Origin: Candidatus Latescibacterota bacterium
GTDB lineage: Bacteria; Latescibacterota; UBA2968; SICM01
Assembly: GCA_965217865.1 (NCBI GenBank)
Contig: CBDCJO010000002.1
Coordinates: forward strand, 5,632,001 to 5,696,000
DNA length: 64,000 bases
Direction of reading: 5' to 3'
Below the pieces are notes generated by a model. That model was not told the DNA's origin. It ran no database searches and was given only the letters and a program-made list of their open reading frames with translations. Of the stretch, positions 16,173 through 35,719 are shown one piece after another. Numbering within the stretch: position 1 is the first letter of the stretch; every line of letters starts with the position of its first letter. Made by a program: the position numbers and the translations under genes.

Positions 16173-19100
16173 GTGTCCCGCCCGTCCCAGGCGATTGTGT
16201 AGAAACCTGTGGGCTGGAGTTCGTTCACAAGCTGCGCCACCTGCTGACCCAGGATGTTGTAGACCAGGATCGAGACCCGGGCATCCTCCGGGATCCCATA
16301 GCGGATCGTGGTGATCGGGTTGAACGGATTTGGATAGTTATGCTTCAGGAGGACCTGATTCGGAAGCAGGGACAGTCTTGCGGACGAAAGGTCGCCTGGT
16401 ATCCGCATCTCTCCCTCTGAATCCAGCAAAACCATCTCCGACACCTCTGCGTGCGGCTCCAGAGAGGAGACTTTCACCCGGAACCGCAGGTCGGCCAGGT
16501 TTGTTTCTTCCGAGGCTTCCCCTTCCGCCCCTTCCGACTCCTCCGCTTCGCTCACAATTCCCTCCCCGTAGTTCAAGATCACCGCTTCATTGATATCGGG
16601 CCTGATGACCTTTGCCAACAAGAAGATCGTCTCGTTGCCCGAACTGTCCTCCGAGATTACACGGTACTCGTAGGTCGTCCCGGACAACAGCCCCTCAAGA
16701 TCGATCCGTTGATCCAGGCCGGGATCCCCCGGGTCCGAGCCCATAAAGTCCGTTTCCCCGCTCTCTCGGTACTCCACCCGGGGCGTGCTCTCTTCGTCCA
16801 CGGACCAGAGCACCGTGACCGCGGTCTCCCCGATCCCCTCGACCCTTGGAACCCCCAGGACAACCGGGCTCTGCGTATCTCCCTCTGTCGTAAAACTCCG
16901 GACCGCCCCCTCCGCTCTCCCGCCCCTTCCGTCACCCGCGACCACGTGCCAGGTATAGACGGTGCTCTCTGAAAGGGGTCCGATCGAAAACACGTTTTCG
17001 ATCGTGCTCCCCACCTGCAACCGTTCACAAACAGGTCGTACGTGGTCGAGTCCCCCTCCGGGTCCGTCGCAGCCTCCCAGGTCAGGGTTGGATTCAGCGA
17101 AACGCCTGTCTCCCCCTCCCCGGGTGCGAGAGAAACCGGAGCCGTGGGGGAAAGGTTCGGGTCAACGACGATCAGGTCGTCGACCGTATGGGTGTCCGTA
17201 CCGGCCGGACCCGTGACCACAAGGGACACCGTAAAGCTTCCATCAGCCGTATAGGTGTGGGCCGGACTCTGATCCTCCGAACCGGTCCCGCTTAGCGCCA
17301 CGATCGCAGGAGTTTCCGCCCTGTGAACGATCGACAGCGATGCGGATTTCTCCCCCTCCGAATCGGGGGTGAAGCTCACCACGACAGGGACACTTTCGCC
17401 CGGCTGCACGGTGAACGTGGTCGCACTGACCGTGAACGCATCCCCATCGTCTCCGGTAACCGCGATATCCGAGACCACCAGCTCAGCGTCCCCGGAATTC
17501 CCGATCGTAAACGTTATCTCCGAGGCCCCCCCCACCTTCGTGTCCTCCATCTCCAGGACCGTCACCGAAAGGTTGATGATCGGGGCCGGCTCGGGCGGCT
17601 GTTCTGTCCCGGTCCCGGTCAACGCGAGCTCCAGCGGACTCCCTGCCGCGTCGTGGGAGATCGAGAGCGTCGCGGACTTCTCTCCCTCGTCAACCGGAGA
17701 GAACGTCACCGTCACCGTGGCGTTGTCCCCCGGGGCAATCGTGATCGTGACCTGGCTAACCGAGAATGCCTCGGAATCCGGGCCCGATACCGTCACCGCA
17801 GAGACATCCAGCGGGGCTGTCCGCGAGTTGCTCAGAATGAGCGAGAGAGACTTATCCCCACCGACCTGCACGTCCCCGAACGGGAGCGCCGCTGCGGAGG
17901 CCGTGATCGCCGGTGCGGCCGCGATCCCGGTGCCGGTCAGCGACACGGTCGTCGGACTCCCCGGGGCATTGTGCGAGATCGAAAGACTGGCGGATTTCCC
18001 GCCCGCGGTTGAGGGTGTAAATGTCACCGCAAAAACCGCAGCCGGCGCCCCTGCAGCGATTGTGGCCGTGATCGGAGAAACGGAGAAATGCGCCTGATCC
18101 GTCCCACCCACCGTGATCCCCGTGATGGAAAGATCCGCGTTGCCCGTGTTGGAAACCGAGAGAGAAAGCGCATTGCTCTGGGCCACCTGTACGTTCCCGA
18201 ATGCAAGATTCGTAGTGGAAAGAGATATGACTGGTACAGGAGGAGGTGGAGCGGTCGTCCCGTTGCCGGACAAGGCAATCGATGAGGGGCTCCCCGCGGC
18301 GTTGTGGGCTATCGACAGAGAAGCCGACTTCGCGCCAGCAGAGGTCGGTATAAACGTAACCGTAAAAACCGCAGCCGACGGCCCTGCAGCGATTGTGGCC
18401 GTGGTCGAAGAAACCGAGAACTGCGCCGCATCCGTCCCAGTCACTGTGATGCCCGTAACCGATAGCGTATCTGTCCCTGTGTTGGAAATCGATAAGGAGA
18501 GTGGCTTGCTCTGGCCGATTTGCACGTCCCCGAAAGGCAGAGGGGACGGAGAGATGGATATGACCGGTGCGATGGACCCCGCGGCCTCGCCCGAGGCCCC
18601 GCTCAGGTTCCCGGTGCTGTCAACAGCCGCAATCTTGAAGTAGAAGCTCCCGGCGGTCAATCCAATGTTTGTATATGATGTCCCGGGTTGGTCCACGCGA
18701 GCGATCGAATCCGGCGACGCGGGTGTAAATCCCGCAGTATTGCTTCGGTAGATGATGTAGTGGGAGAGATCAAGGTCCGTATTGGCCGTCCAGGTAAGGG
18801 CCATCTGGTTGTTCCCGACAGCAGCCGTCAGACCCGAGGGTGCGGCCGGCGGGGTCGTGTCGATCCCCGTCCCGGACAAGGAGACGGTTTTCGTCGGGGC
18901 CGTCGCGTCGTTGCTGGTGATCGTAAGGGTCCCCGTCTTCGAGCCCGTCGAAGTCGGCGCGAAAGTCACGGTCACCGTCGAGCTGTCCCCGCCGTTGATG
19001 TTGAAGCTCGGGGGCACCACAGGCGAGACGCTAAACTGATCCGAATCGTCCGTAAGACCCGATACGGTGAGCGTAAGGTCCCCGTCGTTCTTGATCTGAA

Positions 19101-19189
19101 ACGTTGCCTGTGCGGACCCTCCCTTCTCAACGTTCCCGAACGAAAGGGTTGACTCGGAAAGGGAGATTGTGGGTTCGGCAACCTGGTTC

Positions 19190-22100
19190 AGATAGACCAC
19201 GTTTGGAGAGCTGTTCCCCACCGCGATGTCCAGGTCTCCATCTCCGTCCACATCTCCTAACGCCAAGGATTTCGTATTGTCGTTGGTGGGTCCGAAGGTG
19301 GCGGACGTGGGGAAGCTTCCCGTTCCATCGTTCAGATAAGCCACATTCTGTTCGTTACCGTTCCCCACTGCGATATCCAGATCGCCGTCGTTATCCGCGT
19401 CTCCAATCGCAAAGGCATACGTGTTGTCCCCGCTTCCGAAGTTTTGAGATGTGCCGAATCCAGGCGTGCTGTTCCCGTCATTCAGATAAACCACGTTCTG
19501 TCCGCCGGTGCTGTTTCCCACGACGATATCCAGATCCCCATCCCCTTCAACGTCTCCTAATGCAACAGTCTGCGTTGCATCGTTCGTCGGACCGAAGTTC
19601 GTTCCCGTGGCAGGGAAGCTCCCCCCTCCGTCGATATACACCACATTCTGTTCGCCGTTGTTCCCCACCACAAGGTCCGGGTCCCCGTCCCCATCAACGT
19701 CCCCAACGATCACAGCTGTCGTCGCATCATTGGTTGGGCCAAAGTCGTCGGATGTGGGGAAAGCCCCATTCCCATCGTTGAAGTAGGCCACGTTCTGGGC
19801 GCTGCTGTTCCCCACGGCCAGATCGATATCCCCATCGTTGTCCAGGTCCCCGGATGCAACCGAAGACGACAAGTCGGACCCTGTCCCGAAGGCGTTGGAG
19901 AACCTGGAGAAGTCGGCCGGACCAATCCCTGCGGCAACGAGGAACTTCCACACGTAAGGGGCGATGGCCTCCCCGCCTGTTGATTGGACCCCGGAAGTCA
20001 GTGAGGCCTGGACTTCCTCGCCCGGCTTGAAATCCGCGGCCGGATCGAAGCTGATCACGGTCGTCCCCCCACCCCCATATGTCCCCGATCGCTCTCCGGT
20101 CAAGGTCCCGTGCACAACAAACGTGCTCGCGGTTCCGGCGTTCATGGCCTGGTTGAAAGTCGCGGTCACATTCGCCCCCACTAAGGCATCGATGTCGTTC
20201 TTCGGAGGGGCCACCGGACTCGGCGGAGGGATGGTGGTGGTTAAATTGTGGAACACCGAGAGGGTGCTGGATGAAAAATTTAGAACCCCCAGGTCGGGTT
20301 TTCCGTCTCCGTCCAGATCTCCAATTGCCACGCCATAAGGGCTAGTTCCAGTTGTGAAGTCGACTTTGCTGGCGAATGAGATCGTGCCGGAACTGCCCGT
20401 GTTGCGAAATATCGACACGGTGTTTGTACCGGAGTTGGGGGCCGCCATATCCAGCTTGTTGTCTCCATCCAGATCTCCAATTATAAGATAAGACGGATTG
20501 GTTCCGGTTGTGAAGTCGATTTTTGCAGCAAAAGAACTGGCGTCGATGGTACCGGCGGTGCTGGTGTTTCTTATGACCGATATGTTGTTCCCATCGAAGT
20601 TTGTGACGGCCAGATCGGATTTGCCGTCGCCGTCGAGATCGCCAATCGCAATCCGGTCGGGCCCTGTTCCGGCTGTGAAGTCGACTTTTGTAGCGAATGA
20701 GGAGGTTGTAATGGAACCCGACGTACTGGTATTGCGGAGCACCGATATCGTCGTTCCAGCGCCGCTACCATAATTTGTGAGAGCGATATCCCGTTTTCCA
20801 TCTCCGTCCAAGTCGCCAATGGCCAGACCACTGGGATCGGTTCCGGTTGTGAAGTCGACTTTTGCGGCAAAAGAGATGGTTCCGGACGTGCTGGTGTTGT
20901 GGAAAACCGAGACTGTATTTGAGACGGCATTCGTAGCGGCCAGATCGGGTTTTCCATCGCCGTCGAGGTCGCCGAGGACCAGAATACGCGGCGTTGTTCC
21001 CGGGGTGAGATCGACTTTTGTAGCAAAAGAAGAACCATTGATTGCCCCGCTCGCACTCGTATTGCGGAAGACAGAGAGGGTGTTGGCACTGAGGTTCGTG
21101 GTGGCGATGTCGGGTTTTCCATCGCCGTCAATATCCCCGATGATCGGTTCTATAGGTCCATTATCTGTTGTAAAGTCGACTTTCGCAGCCAGGGTGGTGG
21201 GATCGATCGCGGAGACGGAGGCCGTGAAAGTGGGCAGGAAGAACTGTGTGGAGATGGCCGTCCGGTTGTTCACCGTCACACTGATCGGACCGAACGTGGC
21301 GCCGGTCGGCACCGTGACCGTCAGGGAGGTCGCCGAAGCCGCCGTGACCGTGCCTTTGATCCCACCGATAAACACGGTGTTGTTGGCAGGTGTGGCATCG
21401 AAGTTCGTGCCGGTGATGGTCACCGAGGCGCCCGCAGCGGCTGACGTGGGCGTAAACGATGTGATCGTGGGCAATGCGGTGGTGAGGGTAAGGTTGTGGA
21501 AGATGGATACGGTGTTCGAATTCCCATTCGTCGCGACCAATTCGGGTTTTCCATCGCCATCCAGATCAGCAATGGCTACAAACCGCGGAGAGGTTCCAGT
21601 GGTGAAGTCGACTTTTGTGGCAAAGGAATTGGCATCAATGGTTCCGCTTGTGCTCGTGTTGCGAAACACAGACAGCGTATTTGCACTCTGATTCGTCACT
21701 GCCAGGTCGGGTTTTCCATCGCCATCGAGGTCACCAATGGCCACAGTCGATGAACCCGTTCCAGCAGTGAGGTCAACTTTTGTGGCAAAGGAATTGGCAT
21801 CAATGGTTCCGCTTGTGCTCGTGTTGCGATAGATTGATACGGTGTTTGAACTGAAGTTGGCCACGGCCAATTCGGGTTTTCCATCGCCATCGAGATCACC
21901 AATGGCCACGAACGATGGAAAGGTTCCTGCGGTGAAGTCAACTTTTGTGGCAAGGGAATTGGCATCAATGGTTCCGCTTGTGCTCGTATTGCGATAGATC
22001 GATATGTTGTTCGCAGTTCCATTTGCCGTGACCACATCTGGTTTTCCATCCCCATCGAGATCGCCAATCGCCACCGCCCGTCGATCAGTTCCCGTTGTAA

Positions 22101-22280
22101 AATCGATTTTTGTGGCAAAAGAGTTTGCATCGATGGTTCCCGATGTGCTCGTGTTGCGATATACAGACATGGTATTCGAGTTGTTATTGGCCAAGATCAA
22201 ATCGGATTTTCCATCGCCATCTATATCGCCTATTGCCGCGCTTCGTGGAGAAGTTCCAGTGGTGAAGTCTACTTTGGCAG
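19190..22280 (-). repeat. FG-GAP/VCBS-type repeats (about 17 copies) plus two IPT/TIG units
   Basis: Recurrent AIGDLDGDGKPD...NTSTSGTIDANSFATKVDFTTGT and GDVDGDGDLDIAVGN units. Confidence 0.9.
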
Positions 22281-23189
22281 ATAGGGTCAATGCGTCGATG
22301 CCTGAGACTGTGGCTGTGAAAGTGGGCAGGAAGAAAGCATCCGAGATAGCGGTACGATTGTTGACTTGAACAGTGATTGGGGCGAACGTCGCGCCTGTCG
22401 GAACGGTGACGGTGAGCTGCGTTGTTGTAGCCGCAGTGACGGTGGCTTTTGTTGCGCCGAAGAAGACGGTGTTGTTGGCCGGGGTGGTATCGAAGTTGGT
22501 TCCGGTGATGGTGACGGAGGAGCCGACGACCCCCGAGGTGGGGGTGAAAGAGGTAATGGTGGGTGGATTCATCGCTGCTTCGAGCCCCATCATTCCGGCG
22601 GAATAGCTCTTATAGAAAAACTCACTGGCGCTGATGGTTAGTCCGTTGTTTGTCGCGAAATCGCCGCTACTGGACGCAAAGGTGATCGCGTCGAACCGGT
22701 CACCGTCGGACGGCGTGAAGCTGTTGATCAGAGTGACATTAAGCGTGCCGTCGAGTGTGGCTGTTCCACTGACCGCAAGCTGGTCGTACTCGGTGCTCAC
22801 AGTCGTACCGCCGATCTCGGAGTTCAGCGTTCCCGCGGAGGTCTGCGTGTAGTTTGCCCCCCCCGCCGACCGTAAAGCCGCTTCCCGATCCCACGGTCAG
22901 TGTTCCGGCATTGCTGATCGCACCCGCGCTCGTGAAGTTCGCGCCGTTCTTGATCTCGAAGCTGCCCCCGGATGCGTTGGTGGCGAAGTTGGCCAGGCCG
23001 GTTCCGCTCTGGATCTGGGCGCTCGCACCGTCAAGGATGATGGTCGCGGCGTTTGTGACTATGTCGGCCCCAGTGAAATTGAAAGTGGACTGGATGTCGT
23101 AGGTGCCGCCTGTCAGGGTCTGGGCGGAGAAGTTGGAGAAGCTTCCCGTAATGTCGATCGTGCCGGTCTGTACGTCCACCGTACCTGTA

Positions 23190-26100
23190 TTGTTGAACGG
23201 ATTAGCGATGGTGGAAGTCCCCGTGCCCGCAGACTTGCGAAACGTGCCGCTGTTGTTGAAGGTCCCAGCTGTGCCGGCATTCCAGTTCAGGAGGTTATTG
23301 CTCGTGAGATTGAACAGCGCACCGCTCTGGTTGTTCAGAACGGATGAGTTGTTCATGTAGAAAGTCCCCGCGGTCCAGGTCATCGTGCCGTTGTTGTTCA
23401 GCGTGGCCGTGTCGAGGAAGTCGCTGCTCGTAGATAGGGTGAGGATCCCGTCGTTCGTGAAAGTCGTGCCGTTGAGGGTGTTACCCGACAAAGTAAGTCC
23501 GTTCCCGGTGAAGTTGAACGTCGCACCACCCCCGGTCGCCGTGAAGGTGCCTGTGTTTTCCAATGTCCCGCTGATCGTGCCGGAAAAAGATCCCGAGAAC
23601 GAGTGGACCCCACTGTGGGTGACTGTCGCGCCGGAGGAGACCGTATAGGTCCCCCCCCCGTGTGGGTCCCACCCCCCGTGAAAGAGAGCGTCCCGGACTG
23701 GCCTTCGATCGCTCCACCGGTGTTGTTGAATATATCAACGATAGTGGAAATGCCTGCGCCCGCAGACTTGCGGAAGGTTCCTGTGTTGTTGAAAGTCCCT
23801 GTTCCAGTGGCACTCCAGCTCATGGTGTTATCGCTTTGCATATCGAAAAGCGCCCCACTCAGGTTATTCAGAACCGCAGGGCTGTTGATATAGAAGGTAC
23901 CCCCCGTCCAGGTGATCGTCCCGCTGTTATCGAGCGTACGGGTGTCCAGGGTACTGGTGCCGGTGGGAACGGTGAGGGTCGCTCCGGATTGAATCGTGGT
24001 GACACCTGAGCCCGACATCGTGCCTGCAGACCAGTTCATACTCCCTGTCACCGTAATGGTGTCCCCCCCCGTGACCGTGCCCCCGGTGACCTCGAAGTTC
24101 GAGGTGGAAAGACCACTGTTTACCGTCAGGGTGGCCCCGCCCACACGAACCGGACCCGCCCCGGGAAGCGTGACTCCCGCATTGAAAGTATGAGAACCCG
24201 TACTGAAATTGAGAAGCGCCCCGGAGGACACGTCGAAGGCCCCGGTGCTGGTCCCTCCCGAACTCATCACCACGGTCCCCGTCTGGACTTCTACCGTACC
24301 TGTATTGTTGAACGGATCGTCGATGCTCGAAGTCCCCGTGCCCGCTGACTTGCGGAACGTGCCGCTGTTGTTGAAGGTCCCTGCTGTACCGGCACTGACC
24401 GACATGGTGTGGTTGCCCGTGAGGTCGAACAGCGCACCGCTCTGGTTATTCAGAACCGCGGAGTTATTCATGTAGAAAGTCGCGGCTATCCAGGTCATCG
24501 TCCCGTTGTTGTTCAACGTGGCCGTGTCGAGGATGTTGGTGCCCGCAGACAGGGTGATAATCCCATCGTTCGTGAAGGTCGTGCCGTTGAGGGTGTTACC
24601 GGGCAAGCTGAGTCCATTCCCAATGAAGTTGAACGTCGCACCTCCTCCGGTGGCCGTAAATGTGCCCGTGTTTTCCAATGTCCCGCTGATCGTGCCGGAA
24701 AATGATCCCGAGAACGAGTGGACCGCACTGTGGGTGACTGTCGCACCGGAGGAGACCGTATAGGTCCCCCCCGTGTGTGTCCCACCCCCCGTGAACGAGA
24801 GCGTCCCGGACTGGCCTTCGATCGTGCCACCCGTGTTGTTGAATATATCAACGATGGTGGAAGTGCCTGCGCCCGCAGACTTGCGGAAGGTTCCTGTGTT
24901 GTTGAAAGTCCCTGTTCCAGTGGCACTCCAGCTCATGGTGCTATTGCTTTGCATATCGAAAAGCGCACCGCTCAGGTTGTTCAGAACCGCAGGGCTGTTG
25001 ATATAGAAGGTGCCCCCAGTCCAGGTGATCGTCCCGCTGTTATCGAGCGTACGGGTGTCCAGGGTACTCGTGCCCGTGGGAACGGTGAGGGTCGCTCCGG
25101 ATTGGATCGTGGTGACACCCGACCCCGACATCGTGCCTGCAGACCAGTTCATACTCCCTGTCACCGTAATGGTGTCCCCCCCCGTGACCGTGCCCCCGGT
25201 GAGCTCGAAGTTCGAGGTGGAAAGCCCACTGTTTACCGTCAGGGTGGCCCCACCCACACGAACCGGACCCACCCCGGGAAGCGTGACGCCCGCGTTGAAA
25301 GTATGAGAACCCGCGCTGAAATTGAGAAGCGCCCCGGAGGACACGTCGAAGGAGCCTGTGCTGGTACCCGATGAGGTGAACAACATCGTACCGGATTGCA
25401 CCTGGACGCTGTCCGTGTTATTGAACGGGTTACTGATGGTGGAAGTCCCCGTGCCCGCAGACTTGCGGAACGTGCCGCTGTTGTTGAAGGTCCCTGCTGT
25501 ACCGGCACTGACCGACATGAGGTGGTCGCCCGTGAGGTCGAACAGCGCACCGCTCTGGTTGTTCAGAACTGATGAGTTGTTCATGTAGAAAGTCGCGGCT
25601 ATCCAGGTCATCGTGCCGTTGTTGTTCAGCGTGGCCGTGTCGAGGATGTTGGTACCCGCAGACAGGGTGATAATCCCATCGTTTGTGAAAGTCGTGCCGT
25701 TGAGGGTGTTACCGGGTAAGGTAAGTCCATTTCCAATGAAGTTGAACGTGGCACCCCCCCCCGGTCGCCGTGAATGTGCCCGTGTTTTCCAATGTCCCGC
25801 TGATCGTGCCGGAAAATGATCCCGAGAAGGAGTGGACCGCACTGTGGGTGACTGTCGCGCCGGAGGAGACCGTATAGGTGCCACCCGTGTGGGTCCCACC
25901 CCCCGTGAACGAGAGCGTCCCGGACTGGCCTTCGATCGTTCCACCGGTGTTGTTGAATATATCAACGATGGTGGAAGTGCCTGCGCCCGCAGACTTGCGG
26001 AAGGTTCCTGTGTTGTTGAAAGTCCCTGTTCCAGTGGCACTCCAGCTCATGGTGTTATTGCTTTGCATATCGAAAAGAGCACCACTCAGGTTGTTCAGAA

Positions 26101-27400
26101 CCGCAGGGCTGTTGATATAGAAGGTACCCCCGGTCCAGGTGATCGTCCCGTTGTTGTCGAGCGTACGGGTGTCCAGGGTACTGGTGCCGGTGGGCACGGT
26201 GAGGATCGCTCCGGATTGGATCGTGGTGACACCCGACCCCGACATCGTGCCTTGCAGACCAGTTCATACTCGAGGTGGAAAGCCCACTGTTTACCGTCAG
26301 AGTGGCCCCGCCCACACGAACCGGACCCGCCCCGGGAAGCGTGACTCCCGCGTTGAAAGTATGAGAACCCCCGGTATAGTTGAGAAGCGCCCCGGAGGAC
26401 ACGTCAAAGACGCCAGTGCTGGTCCCTCCCGAACTCATCACCACGGTCCCCGTCTGGACTTCTACCGTACCTGTATTGTTGAACGGATCGTCGATGCTGG
26501 AAGTCCCCGTACCCGCAGACTTGCGGAACGTGCCGCTGTTGTTGATGGTCCCTGCTGTACCGGCACTCCAGCTCAGGGTGTTGTCGCTCGTGAGATCGAA
26601 CAGCGAACCGCTCTGGTTGTTCAGAACTGCGGAGTTGTTCAGGTAGAAAGTCCCTGCTGTCCAGGTCATCGTGCCGTTGTTGTTCAGCGTGGCCGTGTCG
26701 AGGATGTGGGTGCCCGTAGACAGGGTGATGATCCCGTCGTTGGTGAAGGTCGTGCCGTTGAGGGTGCTACCGGGCAAAGTAAGTCCATTTCCAATGAAGT
26801 TGAACGTCGCACCACCCCCGGTGGCCGTGAAGGTCCCCGTGGTTTGCAAAGTGCCGCTGATCGTGCCGGAAAAAGATCCCGAGAACGAGTGAACCGCACT
26901 GTGGGTGACTGTCGCGCCGGAGGAGACCGTATAGGTACCCCCAGTGTGGGTCCCATCCCCCGTGAACGAGAGCGTCCCGGACTGACCTTCGATCGTTCCA
27001 CCGGTGTTGTTGAAGGTATCAGCGACGGTGGACGTGGTCCCCCCCGCGGACTTGCGGATCGTGCCCGTGTTGTTGAAGGTCCCTGCTAAACCGACACTCC
27101 AACTCAGGAGGTTATTGCTTTGCATATCGAACAGCGCACCGCTCAGGTTGTTCAGAACTGCAGAGTTGTTCAGGTAGAAGGTCCCACCGGTCCAGGTGAT
27201 CGTCCCGCTGTTATCGAGCGTACGGGTATCCAGGGTACTGGTGCCGGCGGACAGGGTAAGGGTAGCGCCGGACTGAATAATGGTGCTATCTGACCCCGAC
27301 ATCGTGCCGCTCGACCATACCATGATGCTTGTCACAGTCAGGGTCCCGGCTCCCGTCAGTGTACCACCCGAAACCGTAAAGGAGTCGTTGACCGTGGAAG
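23190..27400 (-). repeat. About four near-identical 1113-bp (371-aa) tandem units
   Basis: Anchor GACATCGTGCC at 24014, 25127, 26241 and 27298 (spacings 1113, 1114, 1057). Each unit has two GTFNNxGTFRKSAGxGTSxI sub-repeats. Confidence 0.9.
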
Positions 27401-27801
27401 CAGCCGCGATGGAGATGCTGCCGCCTGAAAGGACCAATTTTTCGTCGCTGGTCAGGCTGTTGATCGTGGTGGTGCCCGAGGCGTGAGTTATTGTGGGCGT
27501 CCCGCCAACGCTGATCGTGACATCGTCGGATACGCCCGGGAGGACATCCCCGCTCCAGTTGATCGCGTCGCTCCAGGAGACACCGTCGCCCCCGCCGTCC
27601 CAGGAGATGGCCGCTGCAGCGGCTAAGGTGGGGAGGAGGAGGGAGAAGCAGATTGAAGATTGAAGATTGAAGACCGGACAGACTTAGGCGAGATAAGAAT
27701 TGGTTTGGAAGGCGGTTTTTGTGGAGAAGGGTGTTCATGTGACCAACGTATTCATGAAATGAAGGCCTTAGGTAGTCAAATAACGCCTTCTCTTACATAA
27801 T

Positions 27802-27825: not shown

Positions 27826-28167
27826 GGAATACATAAAAGACATACCAATCCAATAAACAAAAAGACCCATCCCAACCGCCTGTGATCTTACCAGGGAGGC
27901 CTTTAGATGGGCAAAACAATCATTGAAAACATCCGGTCTGGTGAAATTCATCTCGGGTTCCGCCGAACTTTCCTAATGCTTGTACCTACAGGGCTTATCT
28001 ACAAAAGACAAGGTACCTTCACTTAGGAATCAGGTCAAGTATATTCTGTGGACATGGACAGGAATTGAAGATCGAGATTCGGCGGCAATGGCATACCTAT
28101 ATGCGCACCCTTCACCCCTGTTCGCCATCGGGTCTGAGAAAGATCCTCAGATAGACCTATTACCTTA

Positions 28168-28275
28168 GAGATTAGGTTGGAGAGGCTCGGTTTTCGGGTG
28201 CTGCGATTTACTGACGGTGATGTCAAGCAGATCTCGAAGGCGACCTGCATGGGGATAGATGAGAATGGGATATGA
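28168..28275 (+). pseudogene. C-terminal remnant of a DUF559/Vsr-like endonuclease
   Basis: Reads EIRLERLGFRVLRFTDGDVKQ, the family's C-terminal motif; the 5' part is absent. Confidence 0.6.
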
Positions 28276-28397
28276 CCCACCCCGCCCCGGCTTAAGTCAC
28301 GCCGGGGCACCCCTCCCAAGAGGGGATTTTGGTTGGCGTTTCTTGGAATACGCCATGAAAATGAAAATCCCCTCCTTGGAGGGGATTTAGGGGTGGG
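28275..28397. repeat. CCCCTCC-N-GAGGGG palindromic repeats in inverted pair
   Basis: CCCCTCCCAAGAGGGGATT and AATCCCCTCCTTGGAGGGGATTTAGGGGTGGG, of the kind that usually flanks DUF559 genes. Confidence 0.55.
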
Positions 28398-28536
28398 TCT
28401 GATGAGGATGGAGTCCGGAATTGGAAAGATGAGAATGGGATATTGGTTGCGGCTGAGTGAAACGAAGCCCGCGATAGGTCTGACCCTAAATCGAATTCTG
28501 GTTATTCGTCACGATCATACTGAAAAGGATGGCCTC

Positions 28537-28564
28537 GTAGGGGGACGGCATGCCGTGCCCCTAC
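28537..28564. repeat. GTAG-type REP palindrome
   Basis: GTAGGGGGACGGCATGCCGTGCCCCTAC. Confidence 0.7.
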
Positions 28565-28586
28565 CTAACAGAATTCAAAATTCTTC

Positions 28587-28632
28587 TTGACATTCATATC
28601 CTTCTATTTTTATATTTAGCCTCACCAAAACA
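28587..28632 (+). promoter_or_regulatory. Promoter of the metal locus with overlapping candidate DtxR/MntR-family operator
   Basis: TTGACA-18 nt-TATATT runs directly into TTTAGCCTCACCAAAA, an imperfect TTTAG-N6-CTAAA-type palindrome. Confidence 0.55.
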
Positions 28633-28719
28633 TTTAATGGGATATTTCTAACTCATTTTTATCAGAAAGAACTAATTCTGATTTCATTCCCTGAAATAAT
28701 CAAACTAGAAGGAAACCCA

Positions 28720-28948
28720 GTAAATCACCCCGCCCAAAGGGCGGGGCATTAACCACTCCCCTCCCCAAACAGATCCAACTGTAGGGGCCCTTTCTGCTCT
28801 TGAAGATGAAACCGAATATATCCTCTGATCACTTTAGAAGTTACCTTTTCGACTACGGTACGGACAAAACAGCCTTTTAGCTTACCCTCAGCAAGCTAAA
28901 CTTTTCCTCCCCTTCCAAAGGAAGGGGTATCCAAGTTCAAATACTTTC
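28720..28948 (+). mobile_element. Non-autonomous IS200/IS605-superfamily element (ISC/IscB-type ends, omega-RNA-like interior)
   Basis: Left end GTAAATCACCCCGCCCAAAGGGCGGGGC and right subterminal hairpin TTCCTCCCCTTCCAAAGGAAGGGGTATCC. No ORF and no TSD. The 3' flank is ATGA. Confidence 0.75.
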
Positions 28949-30169
28949 ATGAACAAATCCATGTTGCTCAAATATTTTAATCTGGGATGCCTCCTGTTAT
29001 TCATCTCTCTTTCAGGATGTGGCCTTCTTACCAAGGCCCCGCTGGACCCGGACACACTGGAGGCTCCCTTCGAGGGAATGACAAATACCCTTAACGCAGC
29101 ATTTGGCAGGGGAGACGAAAATTTCGATCACGTCTTCACGATTAATGAGGGCCTCGGCCCCATCTTCAACCAGGCGGCTTGTTCCTCCTGTCACCCCGGG
29201 GATGGGAGAGGAAACCCGGAAGTCGGGCTGCTGATTCGTTTCAGCCGGGGAAGTGACCTGATTCCGCTCCTGGGAGGCCAGCAGCTTCAGAACCGGGCAA
29301 TCCCGGGGGTTAGTCCCGAGACACTCCCTCCCGGCGTGGACACCTCCCCTCGACTGCCCCCACCGGTGTTCGGTGTGGGTTTGATCGAGACCATTCCTGA
29401 GCAGACTATCCTCCAATTGGCAGACCCGGACGACCTGGATGGAGACGGCATATCCGGCCGACCCAACATGGTCTTTTCCCCTGACTGGGTCCCTTCAACC
29501 GAAGTTGGTAGCGGCCCGGGTCCACAACTGGGCCGCTTTAGCAGAAAAGCCCAGGTGTCCTCGCTGCTCCAACAGATCGCGGAGGCGTATCACCAGGATA
29601 TGGGGATCACAAACGACTTTCTGCCGGTCGAGAACTACAACCCCCAGACCGCGGGTGCGGTCTCTTCCGGAGACAAGGTCCCGGACCCCGAGATACCAGC
29701 CAGCGTTGTGTTCGAAACCGTCACATACGTCAGACTCCTGGCCCCACCGCGTCGAGGTGAGATCACCGAAGAGGTCCGGAGGGGAGAGACACTGTTTACG
29801 AGCATGGCGTGTCACCTGTGCCACGTCCCAACGCTCCGCACCGGACCCAGCACCGTCCCGCAGCTCAACAATGTCGAAATCAATCCCTACTCGGACTTCC
29901 TGATTCACGATATGGGTCCGGAACTAGCCGACCACCGCCCCGATGGAGATGCCGACGGATTCGAATGGAGAACCGCCCCCCTATGGGGCACCAGGCTTGT
30001 CGCAGAAAATCTGGGTGGAAAGCCCTTTTACCTCCACGACGGCCGAACCTCCGACCTTTCAGAGGCCATAAGGCTCCACGGCGGGGAGGCGAAAAATGCC
30101 AGGAACGCATTTATAGCGCTTACTCAGGGTGACCAGCAGGCCGTTCTGGCCTTCCTCGGCTCCTTGTGA
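28949..30169 (+). CDS. Di-heme oxidoreductase (DHOR) family c-type cytochrome lipoprotein
   Basis: Lipobox LSGC, GLGPIFNQAACSSCH, DPDDLDGDGISGR, CHLCH, WRTAPLWG, YLHDGR. Confidence 0.92.
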   Translation: MNKSMLLKYFNLGCLLLFISLSGCGLLTKAPLDPDTLEAPFEGMTNTLNAAFGRGDENFDHVFTINEGLGPIFNQAACSSCHPGDGRGNPEVGLLIRFSRGSDLIPLLGGQQLQNRAIPGVSPETLPPGVDTSPRLPPPVFGVGLIETIPEQTILQLADPDDLDGDGISGRPNMVFSPDWVPSTEVGSGPGPQLGRFSRKAQVSSLLQQIAEAYHQDMGITNDFLPVENYNPQTAGAVSSGDKVPDPEIPASVVFETVTYVRLLAPPRRGEITEEVRRGETLFTSMACHLCHVPTLRTGPSTVPQLNNVEINPYSDFLIHDMGPELADHRPDGDADGFEWRTAPLWGTRLVAENLGGKPFYLHDGRTSDLSEAIRLHGGEAKNARNAFIALTQGDQQAVLAFLGSL

Positions 30170-30176
30170 GAGGCGA

Positions 30177-30599
30177 GTGAACCTTTCACGTCGATCATTC
30201 CTGATACAGGCCGGGGTTGCGGCCATCCCCCTGGTTCCCGGGTGCGCCACGATTGGACTCGCCACGCATAGGGTCCCCCTCGAGGAGGGCAAGGCCACGA
30301 TTCAGATCAAGGATTTCCCCGAGCTATCGGTGATGGGAGGTGGGATCAAGATTAGGGCAGGGGGATTGGCGGACCCGATCTTCCTGGTCCATCTTGATCA
30401 TGCTCGATATATCGCCCTCTCAGCAGTTTGCACCCACCTGGGGTGTCTTGTTCGAAAACAAAATACCTCCTTCCGTTGCCCGTGCCACGGTTCGACTTAT
30501 GACCTGGAGGGAAACGTCTTGCGGGGGCCGGCTCAAGAGCCTATGACGCCTTTGAGGACGGAGGTCGATGAAACTAAGGTGACCATATTTTTTGGTTGA
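30177..30599 (+). CDS. Tat-exported Rieske [2Fe-2S] lipoprotein
   Basis: SRRSFL twin-Arg motif, VPGC lipobox, CTHLGC and CPCHGS boxes; GTG 30177 follows GAGG. Confidence 0.9.
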   Translation: MNLSRRSFLIQAGVAAIPLVPGCATIGLATHRVPLEEGKATIQIKDFPELSVMGGGIKIRAGGLADPIFLVHLDHARYIALSAVCTHLGCLVRKQNTSFRCPCHGSTYDLEGNVLRGPAQEPMTPLRTEVDETKVTIFFG

Positions 30600-30644
30600 A
30601 TATCCTCAGGAAATCAGGAGGATTTAATAAAAAAAGGAATTCCC

Positions 30645-31901
30645 ATGATTTCAAGGAATCTAAAAACAGGCATACTCCTCTTTTATACGGCGGTTTTCGC
30701 AGGATGGGGAACCCCCGCTGAGAGTCAGGAAGTGAATACCGCGGACGATGCCCAGGCCGGAGCAACCCGATCGGTGGAAGGAATCTCGTCCGCCGACACT
30801 GTGTTTTCTTCCCGTCGCGGAAAGCCCGTCATTCGGGGCGGGTACGCGGACAAACCCTTCATCACCCGACTGGGCGGCCGAACGACGATCGGTGGCTATG
30901 CGGAAGCCGAATTTCGCTACGATCAGGTGGCAGGGATCACAGAGGAGGCGACCTTCGTGCCCCGTCGATTCAACCTCTTCACCTATTCCGCGGTATCCGA
31001 CAGGGTGAGCATTGGGTCGGAGCTTGAAATCGAGGAGATGGGGGAGGAGATCAAGCTGGAATATGCCACCATCGACTTCATCGTCCACGAAGCCGTGAGT
31101 TTCAGGGGCGGGGTGATCCTCTCCCCCCTCGGGAAATTTAACCTTGCCCACGACGCCCCATTTAACGATCTTGTCGATCGTCCTCTTGTCTCGACGGAGA
31201 TCATCCCGACGGCACTGTCCGAGCCCGGAATGGGACTGTTCGGGGCGCTCTATCCTTCCGAAGCGTCACGGATCACCTACGAAATCTATGGCGTAAACGG
31301 TTTCAATGAGGGACTTCTCGAAGACAGCGACAGGACCACGCTCCCAAACGGCAAGGGGACGGTCGAGGATAACAACAACCACCCTTCATTTGTGGGACGC
31401 GTCTCCATCAGTCCCAGAGAGGGGATCGAACTGGGGGGATCCTTCCACGCAGGACCCTATAACGTCTATGAAGTGGAGGGATTGAAAGTGGCAGAGCGCC
31501 AAAACCTCTCGATCTTCGCGATCGATTACGAACTCCGTCACGATCGCTGGGAGCTTCTCGGGGAATACGCACGGGCTCACGTGGATATTCCGAACGCCAT
31601 ATCCGACCTGTTCGCAAGGCGCCAGCAGGGCATCTATGCCCAGGTCAACAGTCACTTCGGGAGAGGGTTTTTTCCTGATCTGCCCCATTCCTTGTTTACG
31701 GGAACCTTCCGTTACGATTTTGTCGATTTCGATTCCGAGGCCACGGGTGATTCACAATGGAAACTCACCTTCGGCCTGAACTTCAGGCCCACCGAGGATA
31801 CCGTCTTCAAACTGAACTATATCCGGGGCCGGGAGACGGATGCGGTGCCGCTCTCCGTGGATAGTGCGGCCTTTCTATTCGGGGTCGCAACATATTTTTA
31901 A
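30645..31901 (+). CDS. Outer-membrane porin-like beta-barrel
   Basis: Signal peptide, IGGYAE, SELEIEE...LEYA, EIIPTALSEPG and a C-terminal GVATYF barrel signal. Confidence 0.8.
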   Translation: MISRNLKTGILLFYTAVFAGWGTPAESQEVNTADDAQAGATRSVEGISSADTVFSSRRGKPVIRGGYADKPFITRLGGRTTIGGYAEAEFRYDQVAGITEEATFVPRRFNLFTYSAVSDRVSIGSELEIEEMGEEIKLEYATIDFIVHEAVSFRGGVILSPLGKFNLAHDAPFNDLVDRPLVSTEIIPTALSEPGMGLFGALYPSEASRITYEIYGVNGFNEGLLEDSDRTTLPNGKGTVEDNNNHPSFVGRVSISPREGIELGGSFHAGPYNVYEVEGLKVAERQNLSIFAIDYELRHDRWELLGEYARAHVDIPNAISDLFARRQQGIYAQVNSHFGRGFFPDLPHSLFTGTFRYDFVDFDSEATGDSQWKLTFGLNFRPTEDTVFKLNYIRGRETDAVPLSVDSAAFLFGVATYF

Positions 31902-31987
31902 CCCCGTGAGGTCGGCAGTCGTGAAACCGAAAGGACGACGCTCCGTATCACGTTTTACTTTTCACGTTTGAAGTATGGAGTCCTTAG

Positions 31988-32674
31988 ATGATGGAGCAGG
32001 AGACGAAGGAGAACGGAGGAAAGCTCACCCACGCCATTGAAGACTATCTTAAATTCATTTTTAAACTTCAGGCGTCCGGGGAGAAGGTCACGACATCCGC
32101 CATCGCGGAACGAATGCACGTGTCCGCGGCCTCCGTCACCAGCATGATAAAAAAGCTGGCCGAGGCGAACCTGCTGACCCATACCCCCTATCACGGGGTC
32201 GATTTGACCCCCGGAGGAAAGAAGATCGCCCTCGAGATCATCCGGCATCATCGCCTCCTGGAGCTTTACCTGGCCGATACCCTCGGTTTCAGCTGGGACA
32301 CCGTCGATGAGGAGGCCGAAAGGCTCGAGCACGTTATCTCCGAGGAATTCGAAGCAAAAATCGACAAGGCCCTCGGGAACCCGACCATCGATCCCCACGG
32401 CTCGTCCATTCCGACTGAGAATGGGAATATGGATCAGGTCGATTGCGTACAGTTGTCCAGTCTGCAAAAAGGTCGTCGTGCAATCATCCGCCAGGTCAGC
32501 GATCGAGACCCCGATATGCTGCGCTACATGGCCAGTATCGGGCTCCATCTCGAAACACCCGTCGAAGTCATCGACAGGGCCCCCTTCAACGGCCCGGTAA
32601 CCATCGGGGTCGGGACGGACCAGCACGCCATTGGTCTGGAACTGGCGGATCATATTTTTGTTACCGTATCATGA
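31988..32674 (+). CDS. DtxR/MntR-family metal-dependent repressor with C-terminal FeoA domain
   Basis: IEDYLKFIF, TTSAIAERMHVSAASVT, RHHRLLELYL, EAERLEHVIS, DPHGSSIP. Confidence 0.95.
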   Translation: MMEQETKENGGKLTHAIEDYLKFIFKLQASGEKVTTSAIAERMHVSAASVTSMIKKLAEANLLTHTPYHGVDLTPGGKKIALEIIRHHRLLELYLADTLGFSWDTVDEEAERLEHVISEEFEAKIDKALGNPTIDPHGSSIPTENGNMDQVDCVQLSSLQKGRRAIIRQVSDRDPDMLRYMASIGLHLETPVEVIDRAPFNGPVTIGVGTDQHAIGLELADHIFVTVS

Positions 32675-32801
32675 AATTCAATATCGGCTCACCTCCGAAG
32701 CGGTGGGGATCCGACGGGTCTGCCCGACGTTATCTTCCCTTCTTAATAACTCTTAAAGTCGGGCTAAAATATATCCTTCATTCAAAAAATAGGGTTCCTC
32801 T

Positions 32802-34004
32802 ATGATTGATCCTCTCGGTGTCCTGCTGGTTGCCTGTGCGATCACGGCAGTGGGATGCGCGCTGTTCTGGCGCGGGCGCAGCTTTTTCGGGCGTCTGCAG
32901 CGCGTCCACCGGATGATAACTAAAGCGGACTCCAAATCACGTCGAGGTTTTCTCCTGGCAGGCGGAGCATCCCTTCTTGGGGTATTGGGGGTCGGCGGAC
33001 GGCGTGCCTTTGGCCCTGCGATCCCTTCCTCCATTGGCCTTGTTGCGCAAGCAGAAGGGCAGGAGGCAGTAAAATCAGAAGTGGGATTGCATGCCCATCG
33101 TATGGGCACAGTCGGAGAGATTCAACCGGGTGACTTCGACCCGATGCGCTATTTGACCGCGTGGAACTTTAATGATTTGGCTCCTGAAGAACGCGAGAAC
33201 TACTACCGGGAAACGCCACGACCCAACGGGACGCTCCTGCGGGAATATGAGTTTGTGGCCGTGGACAAAGAGATTGAAATTGCACCCGGGGTCTTTTTCC
33301 CTGCATGGACATATAACGGGCAGGTTCCGGGTCCCACCATTCGCGCCACCGAAGGTGACCACGTCCGCATTCGCTTCCGCAATCAGGGCTCCCATCCGCA
33401 CACCATCCACTTTCACGGCTGGCATCGCCCCGAGATGGACGGGGCATTTCCGGATCAGTTTGTCTATCCCGGGGATGAATTTCTTATCGAATTTGATGCC
33501 GACCCTGTTGGAATCCACCTCTATCATTGCCACTCCCTGCCGCTAAAACGCCATATCCATAAGGGACTGTACGGCAATTATATTGTGGATCCACGGGAAC
33601 CGAGACCTCCCGCTCGAGAGTTGATCATAATGATGAATGGCTTTGATACGAACTTTGACGGCGAAAACGAAATCTATGCGGCCAATACCGTTGCCTTTTA
33701 CTACATGAATCATCCGATTCAGGTCAAAGTTGGCGAACTGGTGCGCGTGTATCTGGTCAATGTCACGGAATTTGACCCGGTTAACTCGTTCCATCTTCAC
33801 GGAGCGTTTTTCGATGTGTATCGGACGGGGACGCGCCTGCACACGGATGAGTTCACCGATACGGTTATGATGTGTCAGGGGGAACGGGCGATCCTGGAAG
33901 TAACGCTCCGGTATCCGGGGCGTTACATGATTCATGCGCATCAGTCCGAGGTCGCCGAGCTGGGATGGATGGGTATCATTCAGGCCGTAAGCTCTTCAGT
34001 GTGA
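32802..34004 (+). CDS. Two-domain multicopper oxidase (type C-like), Tat substrate
   Basis: SRRGFL. Domain 1 has HTIHFHG and HCHSLPLKRHIHKGL (type-1 Cu site). Domain 2 has FHLHG and IHAHQ (no type-1 Cys). The true start may be ATG 32913. Confidence 0.9.
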   Translation: MIDPLGVLLVACAITAVGCALFWRGRSFFGRLQRVHRMITKADSKSRRGFLLAGGASLLGVLGVGGRRAFGPAIPSSIGLVAQAEGQEAVKSEVGLHAHRMGTVGEIQPGDFDPMRYLTAWNFNDLAPEERENYYRETPRPNGTLLREYEFVAVDKEIEIAPGVFFPAWTYNGQVPGPTIRATEGDHVRIRFRNQGSHPHTIHFHGWHRPEMDGAFPDQFVYPGDEFLIEFDADPVGIHLYHCHSLPLKRHIHKGLYGNYIVDPREPRPPARELIIMMNGFDTNFDGENEIYAANTVAFYYMNHPIQVKVGELVRVYLVNVTEFDPVNSFHLHGAFFDVYRTGTRLHTDEFTDTVMMCQGERAILEVTLRYPGRYMIHAHQSEVAELGWMGIIQAVSSSV

Positions 34005-34026
34005 TACGTAAAAGGAGTAAGAAGCA

Positions 34027-35274
34027 ATGAACGTGGATCCTCATCGCGAATCCAGAGATACATCACATCACGAGAAGAAAAGTCTATCGTCCTGGGTTTT
34101 CATCTTTTTACCACTTGTCCTGCTTGGCATTTTGATCGTCATTCTGCAGACCTACGGCCCCGGCAAAGCCTTGCGTAGCCATTTCCCGCCCGTGGAGGAG
34201 ATCGCGTTTCAGCGCATTGTGCTCCGGGACCAAGAGGCGGCCGATAAACGCCCGAAAGAGATCATTTTGCACATCCTCAACGATGGTCCCAGTGAGACGA
34301 CCGTAGCGCAGGTGATGGTGGATGAAGCGTATTGGCCCTTCGAGATCAGGCCAAAGGCAACACTCAAGCACCTGGAGAGTGCTCAGGTTCATCTGTTTTA
34401 TCCCTGGGTGGAGGGGGAGACACACGAAGTCACACTCATCACCTCAACAGGCCTGACTTTCAGCGAAGAGATCGAAGTTGCCGTAGAATCTCCGAGCCCC
34501 AATTGGACCTATCTGGGTATCTTTTCCCTGTTAGGGGTCTATGTGGGTGTGATTCCCGTTTTCATAGGGCTGCTCTGGTTTCCGGCCATGCAAAATGTGA
34601 GCGCAAGAGGGCTGCATTTCCTCCTGAGCTTAACCGTGGGATTGCTGGTCTTTCTTGCAGTGGACGCGCTCCACGAAGCCCTTGAAGTCGCCGAGGAATT
34701 GCCGGAGGCCTATGAGGGTGTTGCGCTGGTCACGGCCGGATTTGCAGGCTGCTTGCTGCTTCTGATGACCATTTCTCGATGGGCGCGCACTCAGGCGGCC
34801 CAACGCGGTGAGACATTCCAACGGATGGTACTTGCCTACATGATTGCATTTGGGATCGGCTTACACAACTTGGGAGAGGGGCTTGCCATCGGTTCGGCAT
34901 ATGCGCTTGGGAATATCGCACTGGGAGGATTATTGGTGATCGGTTTTGCCGTTCATAATACGACCGAGGGTTTCGCCATCGTGGCTCCGGTTGCGAAACA
35001 GCGGGTCGCTTTTCGCAACTTTATCTGGATGGGAGCTCTTGCGGGTGTGCCGACGATTCTGGGCGTGTGGATCGGCGGCTTTACCTATTCGGCGGTCTGG
35101 TCCGTGCTGTTTCTCAGCATCGGAGCAGGCGCGATTGTGCAGGTCATTTATGTCATCCTATGTCAGATGGCACGCCAACCCGAAGACGCGGGGGTGCTGA
35201 CGCCCCACAATTTTGGCGGCTTGTTGGTGGGTTTTTTGATTATGTACTCGACAGGGCTTCTGGTCACGTTCTGA
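34027..35274 (+). CDS. ZIP (GufA-like) divalent metal transporter with N-terminal extracytoplasmic domain
   Basis: IGLHNLGEGLAIG and HNTTEGFAI metal-binding helices; N-terminal TM plus about 110-aa soluble domain. Confidence 0.92.
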   Translation: MNVDPHRESRDTSHHEKKSLSSWVFIFLPLVLLGILIVILQTYGPGKALRSHFPPVEEIAFQRIVLRDQEAADKRPKEIILHILNDGPSETTVAQVMVDEAYWPFEIRPKATLKHLESAQVHLFYPWVEGETHEVTLITSTGLTFSEEIEVAVESPSPNWTYLGIFSLLGVYVGVIPVFIGLLWFPAMQNVSARGLHFLLSLTVGLLVFLAVDALHEALEVAEELPEAYEGVALVTAGFAGCLLLLMTISRWARTQAAQRGETFQRMVLAYMIAFGIGLHNLGEGLAIGSAYALGNIALGGLLVIGFAVHNTTEGFAIVAPVAKQRVAFRNFIWMGALAGVPTILGVWIGGFTYSAVWSVLFLSIGAGAIVQVIYVILCQMARQPEDAGVLTPHNFGGLLVGFLIMYSTGLLVTF

Positions 35275-35305
35275 ATCCTTTGTCGTCACCTCTTAAAAAG
35301 AGGGA

Positions 35306-35719
35306 ATGGAGATGTTCGGTCCCAGTTTTCGACACAGAATTTCTCAGGTAATTGGCTTTGCTCTCCTTTTAATAGGTATTACACTTGTCGCTGTCGAGGC
35401 GATGCGGGATAGGCCAAATGTCACTTTCGAGGTCGTTGCGGAAAATCTGGTTTTCAGGGGAAATAACCCGACACTTTATGCGAGGCCCGGCTCAAAAGTA
35501 AAACTGATCTTCCGCAATGAATCGCGTGGCATCGAACACCATCTCGCAGTAGAGGGGCTCAACGTGGAAACTGACATTCTTCTACCTGGAGAGCGTGAGG
35601 AGATCAGCTTCTCAGTGCCGCTGCGAGATACGGTCCTGACCTATGCCTGTATGCTGCACCCAATGATGAAGGGTAAATTCGTAGTGGGAAATCCGGATAT
35701 CACTAGCGCATCCCGATAA
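35306..35719 (+). CDS. Membrane-anchored cupredoxin-domain protein
   Basis: N-terminal TM; IEHHL...YACMLHPMMKG type-1 copper ligands. Confidence 0.85.
   Translation: MEMFGPSFRHRISQVIGFALLLIGITLVAVEAMRDRPNVTFEVVAENLVFRGNNPTLYARPGSKVKLIFRNESRGIEHHLAVEGLNVETDILLPGEREEISFSVPLRDTVLTYACMLHPMMKGKFVVGNPDITSASR

Follow-up and report, generated by a model that had tools for sequence, protein, structure and literature searches.

A gene-less IS200-type element splits the Shine-Dalgarno sequence from the start codon in a metal operon of a Latescibacterota bacterium

The stretch of DNA analysed here (the window; 64,000 nucleotides from a Candidatus Latescibacterota bacterium) carries at positions 28720..28948, on the minus strand, a 229-bp non-autonomous IS200/IS605 element, which separates the Shine-Dalgarno (SD) sequence of a metal operon from the start codon of its first gene. 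Judged from its sequence, this element is a PATE (palindrome-associated transposable element), an internal-deletion derivative of an IS200-type element whose only gene is tnpA. The assignment is supported by identical copies in the same genome, by alignment to the parent and by a contig of a related strain which skips exactly these bases. We think it probable that the element is a recent selfish insertion of this gene-less derivative, which likely knocks down the gene behind it and is not an evolved switch. It lies between SD and ATG since its target, TTCAT, is ATGAA read backwards.

The boundaries of the element were found to be exact on inspection of the sequence: AAGGAAACCCA ends at 28719, the 229 nt begin with GTAAATCACCCCGCCCAAAGGGCGGGGC at 28720, and ATGAAC follows from 28949. 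The list of open reading frames contains none of at least 80 aa inside the element, and its predicted DNA fold (-32.2 kcal/mol) beats those of 200/200 shuffled sequences (z -3.93). Its own genome (G000, 96% complete) contains 43 matches to it. Pairing of the ends gave 33 elements, of which 15 are identical 229-bp copies, 12 are of 604-605 bp, four of 317 bp, one of 531 bp and one of 62-63 bp; besides these there are lone ends, truncated at one side. All five forms have common ends. The 15 identical copies occupy 14 distinct sites, and their identity points to a very recent burst of copying. The 604-605-bp copies encode a 148-aa Y1 transposase, TnpA, on the minus strand relative to the orientation used in a preliminary description of this DNA, and the minus strand is the functional orientation of the element. 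The tnpA gene passes the models PF01797 and NF033573 (146 bits against a cut-off of 55); stop-free tnpA frames of this family number 13 in G000, and complete copies with an open frame number 12.

On alignment to the 605-bp parent, the 229-bp form was observed to consist of parent positions 1-79 and 456-605 (identity 75/79 and 134/150), the intervening 376 bp, made up of the 5' region and tnpA, being deleted. Since all 229 nt map to the two ends of a tnpA-only parent, we assign the element to the PATEs: it is free of protein-coding capacity, it keeps IS200/IS605 ends, and it is present in multiple dispersed copies, of which the 15 identical ones suggest mobilisation in trans. Both ends carry subterminal hairpins and terminal inverted repeats are absent, as in the IS200/IS605 (Y1 HUH) elements. 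On every feature examined, its sequence places it in the IS200/IS605 family and the PATE class, and not among the ISC, IS605 or IS1341 elements. The preliminary description had recognised an ORF-less member of the IS200/IS605 family without target duplication, and the ends, the parent and the empty sites agree with it in this. Copies with identical flanks were seen as a pair (G000:C2:1073451 and C2:3766953) preceding a 478-aa NEW3-domain gene, and as a trio of 317 bp (C1:651918, C2:2231 and C2:3293845) within a larger repeat; such flanks indicate duplication after insertion or an assembly repeat.

Along the minus strand, TTCAT adjoins a left end that carries guide GATA and its hairpin; towards the right end come guide AATG, a hairpin and TTAC, with a T beyond the boundary. 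The target TTCAT (28949..28953, minus strand; ATGAA on the plus strand) is left in the flank and contains the start codon of the downstream gene. The left guide GATA (28928..28931, minus strand) lies at the foot of the left hairpin, and its predicted pairing with the TCAT of the target follows from the sequence, from co-variation and from the pairing rule described for IS608 (PMC5934647). The left subterminal hairpin itself, CCCCTTCCAAAGGAAGGGG at 28909..28927, has 8 bp and a 3-nt loop in the sequence and fold, and it holds AAGGAAGGGG on the plus strand. A second left-end hairpin of 11 bp, with T runs on both sides, was identified at 28876..28900 by a terminator scan and by folding. It is followed on the minus strand by a decayed 3' remnant of tnpA (28751..28869, from the parent alignment), by the guide AATG (28747-28750) with the right hairpin (28728-28746; together 28728..28750, supported by the sequence, the fold and the right-end test below), and by the right cleavage site TTAC (28720-28723) with a flanking T at +1 (28719..28723, minus strand; the A at 28719 on the plus strand is host-derived).

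GATA/TCAT and AATG/TTAC are thus complementary tetranucleotides, with each guide placed 5' of a hairpin. ATGA was observed directly after all the paired copies in G000 (33/33) and after 4/4 lone left ends, and ATGAA after 30/33; on the other strand, TCAT adjoins 37/37 left ends. This bears out the expectation of the preliminary description that further copies would be followed by ATGA. An A precedes 32 of the 33 copies and remains in empty sites: where copies lie inside other repeats of G000, the paralogous sites that lack them have the sequence A^ATGAA and show no duplication. The flanking A was considered as a part of the element and is ruled out by these sites. Insertion is therefore 3' of a fixed 4-5-nt target and leaves no duplication, as in the IS200/IS605 family.

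In IS608, guide bases 1-2 are described as pairing crosswise with target bases 1-2, with a preferred base at +1 (PMC5934647). We scored the guide/target rule on relatives fetched with the transposase. Under the IS608 rule the fourth bases pair as well. At left ends, the word predicted by the guide was found 13-18 nt before it in 59/68 scored loci (87 were examined, 19 had no hairpin call, and one duplicate and one partial locus had been excluded beforehand), whereas shuffled guides reached 16.3 on average and 29 at most. At right ends the rule fits 44/50 scored loci (88 examined), where shuffles gave a mean of 22.2 and a maximum of 34. These counts are not p-values, because the loci are related and because the spacing window for left ends was widened after two earlier offset settings. 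Four different targets (TTAT, TCAC, TTAC and TCAT) obey the rule, and T is found at +1 in 41 of the 44 relatives with a fitting right cleavage site. From this co-variation of guide and target, we conclude that ATGA is the transposase target; that is, as read from the sequences, the ATGA flank is the TnpA target TTCAT seen from the other strand, and does not point to the TAM of an IscB nuclease, as had been suggested earlier. In addition, the right hairpin begins no more than 14 nt from the end of tnpA in 45/50 scored relatives, so the family is tnpA-only, with no room for iscB or tnpB.

Among the relatives, three elements of another genome (L059, L074 and L079, in G033) have the guide GATG and insert beside GTGA (target TCAC), with an open frame of 495 codons or more directly adjoining the one at L074. 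G000 itself also retains 87 bp from the right end of a diverged sister element (L086:2055-2141; G000:C2:1972555), about 75% identical, with the guide GAAG and the cleavage site TCAC. The GC skew, which was examined for a lagging-strand bias, is mosaic.

The element is situated in the leader of an operon whose first gene, an intact 406-aa di-haem oxidoreductase-like gene (DHOR, PF06537; 28949..30169, plus strand), is single-copy. The remainder of the operon (30129..35719, plus strand) encodes Rieske and beta-barrel proteins, an MntR/DtxR-family repressor, a multicopper oxidase, a ZIP-like transporter and a cupredoxin-like protein; the mntR, oxidase and ZIP genes are likewise single-copy in G000. 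The DHOR protein is 76% identical over residues 1-406 to its ortholog in a genome of the same family (G001), and DHOR is followed by the Rieske and/or the barrel gene in 12/12 relatives examined. Upstream, a sigma-70-type promoter match, TTGACA-18-TATATT (28587..28616, plus strand), is kept in same-family relatives. The orphaned SD, AAGGA (28709..28713, plus strand), was identified by pairing with the 16S tail, and it aligns with the GGAGG of G001 and a second same-family genome (G002). In the empty allele it stands 6 nt from the ATG, and the insertion puts it 235 nt away.

In order to describe what this displacement means for initiation, we computed the pairing of both leaders with the genome's own anti-SD sequence. 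The empty leader gave -6.2 kcal/mol, which is of median strength (52% of 1500 sampled genes are as strong), whereas the filled leader gave 0. Only 3.2% of the 1500 genes are as weak, a figure which is partly circular because the gene caller picks starts partly by their SD. The positions, the hairpins and the adjoining ATGA given in the preliminary description were all confirmed, as was its observation that removal of 28720-28948 restores a normal SD while the present state has no well-spaced one. Replacement of the lost signal by the element was considered and rejected: its sequence contains neither a replacement SD nor an upstream start in frame, and the frame ending at the overlapping TGA, through which translation could be coupled, has no start in it either. 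AAGGAAGGGG brings no replacement SD, since it lies more than 20 nt upstream of the ATG and is paired in the hairpin. The fold places three strong hairpins in the leader. The hairpin at 28876-28900 has only four T on the plus strand, and in the terminator scan it scores on the minus strand only (one site found, 0.9 expected by chance). Based on these predictions, translation of DHOR is likely lowered by the insertion, and the hairpins may add polarity on the downstream genes.

Several features were noticed around this leader. A TTAG-N6-CTAA palindrome, which we take to resemble a DtxR/MntR operator, recurs upstream of DHOR orthologs (L053, L057, L058, L062, L173 and L175), and a degenerate version overlaps the -10 box in the window (28615-28632). 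Upstream of the promoter, at 28100-28570, there are several other multi-copy palindromic intergenic repeats, which show high contig depth and matches in G001 and G002. Further upstream lies a very large surface-protein region, repetitive and rich in Gly/Thr/Ser (16657-27738, minus strand), which is split over several frames (460, 880, 274 and 2047 aa); its frameshifts may reflect decay or assembly errors in repeats.

By analogy with IS608 and ISDra2, the two hairpins of the element, on single-stranded DNA, would be bound by TnpA from any of the 12 complete 605-bp copies; base pairing of guide GATA with TCAT would direct insertion to the 3' side of TCAT, without duplication. With the SD so displaced and no signal supplied in its place, DHOR translation would fall, and polarity may be added downstream. 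The intact ends and the 12 complete tnpA copies make scarless excision plausible; it could restore the original allele, presumably at a low and unregulated rate, and we found no TnpB or IscB that would cut the emptied site. The knock-down is likely to be a by-product of the recent copying burst.

It may instead be asked whether the insertion is nearly neutral, the operon being almost unaffected because the A/U-rich 3' end of the element lets ribosomes initiate even though no SD is present. Distant DHOR orthologs (L175 and L176) have no clear SD, which makes SD-free translation possible, and predicted accessibility around the ATG is practically the same in the two states (unpaired fraction 0.50 vs 0.48). 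The gene is intact and single-copy, and the filled allele occurs in runs of two studies. Against this, an intact frame is to be expected anyway after so recent an insertion, the SD is conserved in both same-family orthologs, the anti-SD pairing has dropped to a value that few sampled genes share, and three strong hairpins now stand in the leader. We therefore regard near-neutrality as unlikely.

The state of the site in relatives and strains bears on the remaining readings. G001 and G002 share the promoter and the leader, in which GGAGG precedes the ATG and the element is missing; the DHOR ortholog is likewise free of it in 9/9 genome loci and 80/80 metagenome homolog loci. An exact 24-mer of the DHOR gene start gave no match in the metagenome contigs. 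For strains, we compared assembled contigs from six of 21 listed runs (X1, X2, X3, X4, X7 and X8). In X7, a contig of 3137 bp passes directly from 28719 to 28949 and so leaves out exactly 229 bases. It differs from the window at 78 of about 1435 positions (5.4%) and hence comes from a sister strain that is about 95% identical. Together with the in-genome paralogs and the two same-family genomes, it provides the empty sites that were called for at the outset. A conserved UTR, with neither further copies nor an empty allele, had been named as the finding that would speak against a mobile element; such a reading is excluded by the 15 copies and the element-free orthologs. Contigs free of differences cross an element junction in X1 (28925-30200), X3 (28926-29010) and X2 (28567-28724), these three runs coming from two studies, one of them possibly the source of the window. 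A relative of about 90% identity is also present in X2 and X3; it lacks the element and has a different spacer.

The preliminary description proposed a reversible translation-off switch, in which filled and empty cells coexist and excision by TnpA reactivates the metal operon often enough to matter. The family mechanism allows for this: the ends and guides are intact and identical to those of 14 other copies, 12 complete tnpA copies are available, no TnpB or IscB was found that would cut the empty site, and the exact empty junction occurs in nature (X7). For ISDra2, excision is described as restoring a gene at about 2e-3, and ten-fold more after irradiation (PMC2806898). The empty junction of X7, though, is found in a strain of about 95% identity and is thus the ancestral allele. 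A 229-base skip was not seen in the contigs of X1, X2, X3, X4 and X8, of which X4 and X8 cover the junctions poorly, and uncovered bins in X1, X4 and X8 do not count as absence. Phase variation would place both alleles in one clonal population; the strain-identical contigs show only the filled one, and since contigs drop rare variants, a small excised subpopulation would be missed. No link of excision to metal status was found, and start codons are not enriched among the insertion sites (see below). What stands of the proposal is that excision is mechanistically possible; excision was not seen in the strain contigs, and we consider a working switch to be quite improbable.

In order to determine whether start codons are preferred, the elements were removed in silico and genes were called with a hexamer-model caller built for this analysis, which uses an SD term in start choice and gave 5644 genes. 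The 30 distinct insertion sites comprise 3 starts, 21 intergenic sites and 6 sites in genes; a fourth start was added manually and belongs to a 72-aa HTH_17 gene that has AGGAG. AATGAA coincides with a start at 4.2% of all its 2918 sites and at 10.8% of the non-coding-plus-start sites. Relative to the latter, the starts give p 0.49 (3/30) or 0.26 (4/30), and relative to all sites p 0.13 (3/30) or 0.037 (4/30, with the hand-added site). Coding sites are avoided (6/30 vs 61%, p 7e-6), and start-codon targeting is not supported, as the counts are those expected once this avoidance is allowed for. ATGAA is the commonest gene start (660/5644), so occasional insertions at start codons are to be expected. 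The idea that ATGA targeting draws such elements to start codons is thus not upheld, there being no excess beyond coincidence of the motif (p 0.26-0.49).

At the HTH_17 (excisionase-like) gene, a 229-bp copy lies between AGGAG and the ATG (L010:1502-1949; G000:C2:1022735), and a second copy is located 1.7 kb away (G000:C2:1024411). A complete 605-bp copy stands directly before the ATG of a 539-aa GDSL-lipase-domain gene (L024:2107 onward; G000:C1:554698).

Another possibility is a selected knock-down at a hot spot, in which silencing of a metal-uptake operon or loss of a surface protein is favoured in this niche and the ATGAA is hit independently in several lineages. A 1777-bp contig of X8, about 95.5% identical, aligns from exactly 28949 to 29575 and continues as one contig for 1150 bases upstream of the ATG, which were aligned to neither the leader nor the element. 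This break may be a different insertion at the same site, but another context or a rearrangement fits it equally well. The X2 contig stops at 28724, one base before a T/C difference between the 229- and 605-bp types, so that both types may occupy the site; it may equally be an ordinary graph merge, as the contig of X3, a run on the same sample, breaks at 28708. In three runs it is the filled allele that was assembled, although a clonal lineage fixes hitch-hiking insertions without selection, and both X7 and the relative of about 90% in X2 and X3 are empty. Selection at a hot spot is accordingly a doubtful reading. Its strongest form, in which the ATGAA start is a recurrent TnpA-reversible off-switch, hit independently in this strain and perhaps in that of X8, with populations toggling the operon by excision, is in our judgement just as speculative and carries a low probability.

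Finally, we searched for the proteins and RNA of the RNA-guided systems. TnpB (PF01385, PF07282), whose gene marks the IS605 and IS1341 groups, was not found in G000, in searches which each detected 8/14 controls. A full-length IscB was also not found, as NF040563 matches an HNH stretch only, with at most 55 bits against a cut-off of 175, and RRXRR gave no match in G000 and in 0/41 genomes, in searches run without a positive control, which carry no weight by themselves. Rfam returned nothing significant on the element (best E 0.29), and the place of an omega-RNA scaffold is taken by the tnpA coding remnant, which extends up to the right hairpin. Neither an iscB or isrB gene nor a parent bearing one, as in the ISC and IscB-IsrB (OMEGA) elements, was found, the parent being tnpA-only. 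Four HNH matches of the IscB model fall in frames of 410-421 aa. The one such locus that was opened (L168:523-1746) has a 407-aa frame which, by its motifs, reads as a DNA methylase with an HNH tail, and its neighbour is a transposase-like frame. That the element is an ISC/IscB-type remnant bearing an omega-RNA, with ATGA as the TAM of an IscB that maintains it in trans, is very improbable and on the sequence data largely refuted: ISC and IS605B elements with N|ATGA targets are on record (PMC4810608) and TTCAT is the TAM of the ISGst5 IscB (PMC10055086), but all 229 nt map to the tnpA-only parent, whose relatives leave no room for a second gene behind tnpA, and the Rfam, IscB-model and L168 results argue against such an origin. 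The label 'ISC/IscB-type' used earlier is hence unsupported, and of the genes that were to be sought with matching ends, tnpA was found and full-length IscB was not.

Taken as the recent insertion of a tnpA-only derivative, the locus offers a clean natural case in which a TTCAT-targeting IS200/IS605 element severs a gene from its ribosome-binding site without damage to the frame, and a sister strain supplies the matching empty allele. Its ATGA flank needs no IscB. The family, tnpA-only and with four guide/target pairs that co-vary, adds modestly to what is known of natural TnpA retargeting. If toggling or repeated insertion at this start codon were true, it would amount to transposon-driven phase variation at translation initiation. 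In the literature searched, which covered few subscription journals, we found no IS200/IS605 element described as a switch that works by parting an SD from its start codon.

Among the known systems, ISC1-1_MA, ISC2-1_MS and IS605B-1_MA are described with the same N|ATGA target word and cut position and no duplication (Kapitonov et al., PMC4810608); they encode IscB or TnpB, whereas the present family encodes only TnpA or nothing. TTCAT is also described as the motif beside ISGst5 and the TAM of its IscB (PMC10055086). As described, IS608 (PMC5934647) and ISDra2 (PMC2806898) share with our element the subterminal hairpins, the 4-nt guides 5' of each and insertion 3' of a fixed target. They differ in the target, which is TTAC or TTGAT in these two and TCAT/TTCAT here, in the preferred +1 base (C in IS608, G in ISDra2, T here) and in the lack of tnpB here. 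Both excise scarlessly, while excision of the present element would follow from the family mechanism. IS200 (tnpA-only, 707 bp; PMC4513863) has the same single tnpA gene and two inverted repeats in its left end, one of them described as a bidirectional terminator. Unlike IS200, the parent found here has 605 bp, the guide/target anatomy of IS608 and a strict TTCAT, and its terminator is only predicted. The closest in kind are the PATE-like ISGst derivatives of Geobacillus stearothermophilus (PMC10055086) and a 271-nt ends-only element of Halanaerobium hydrogeniformans (PMC7290912), which are likewise short and protein-free, with two IS200/IS605 hairpin ends and a gene remnant, an autonomous partner in the genome and no target duplication. 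As reported in those sources, their parents bear tnpB or iscB, whereas the parent here is tnpA-only and thus no omega-RNA is carried; the present PATE further differs from them in its 15 identical copies and in that this copy splits an SD from its start codon.
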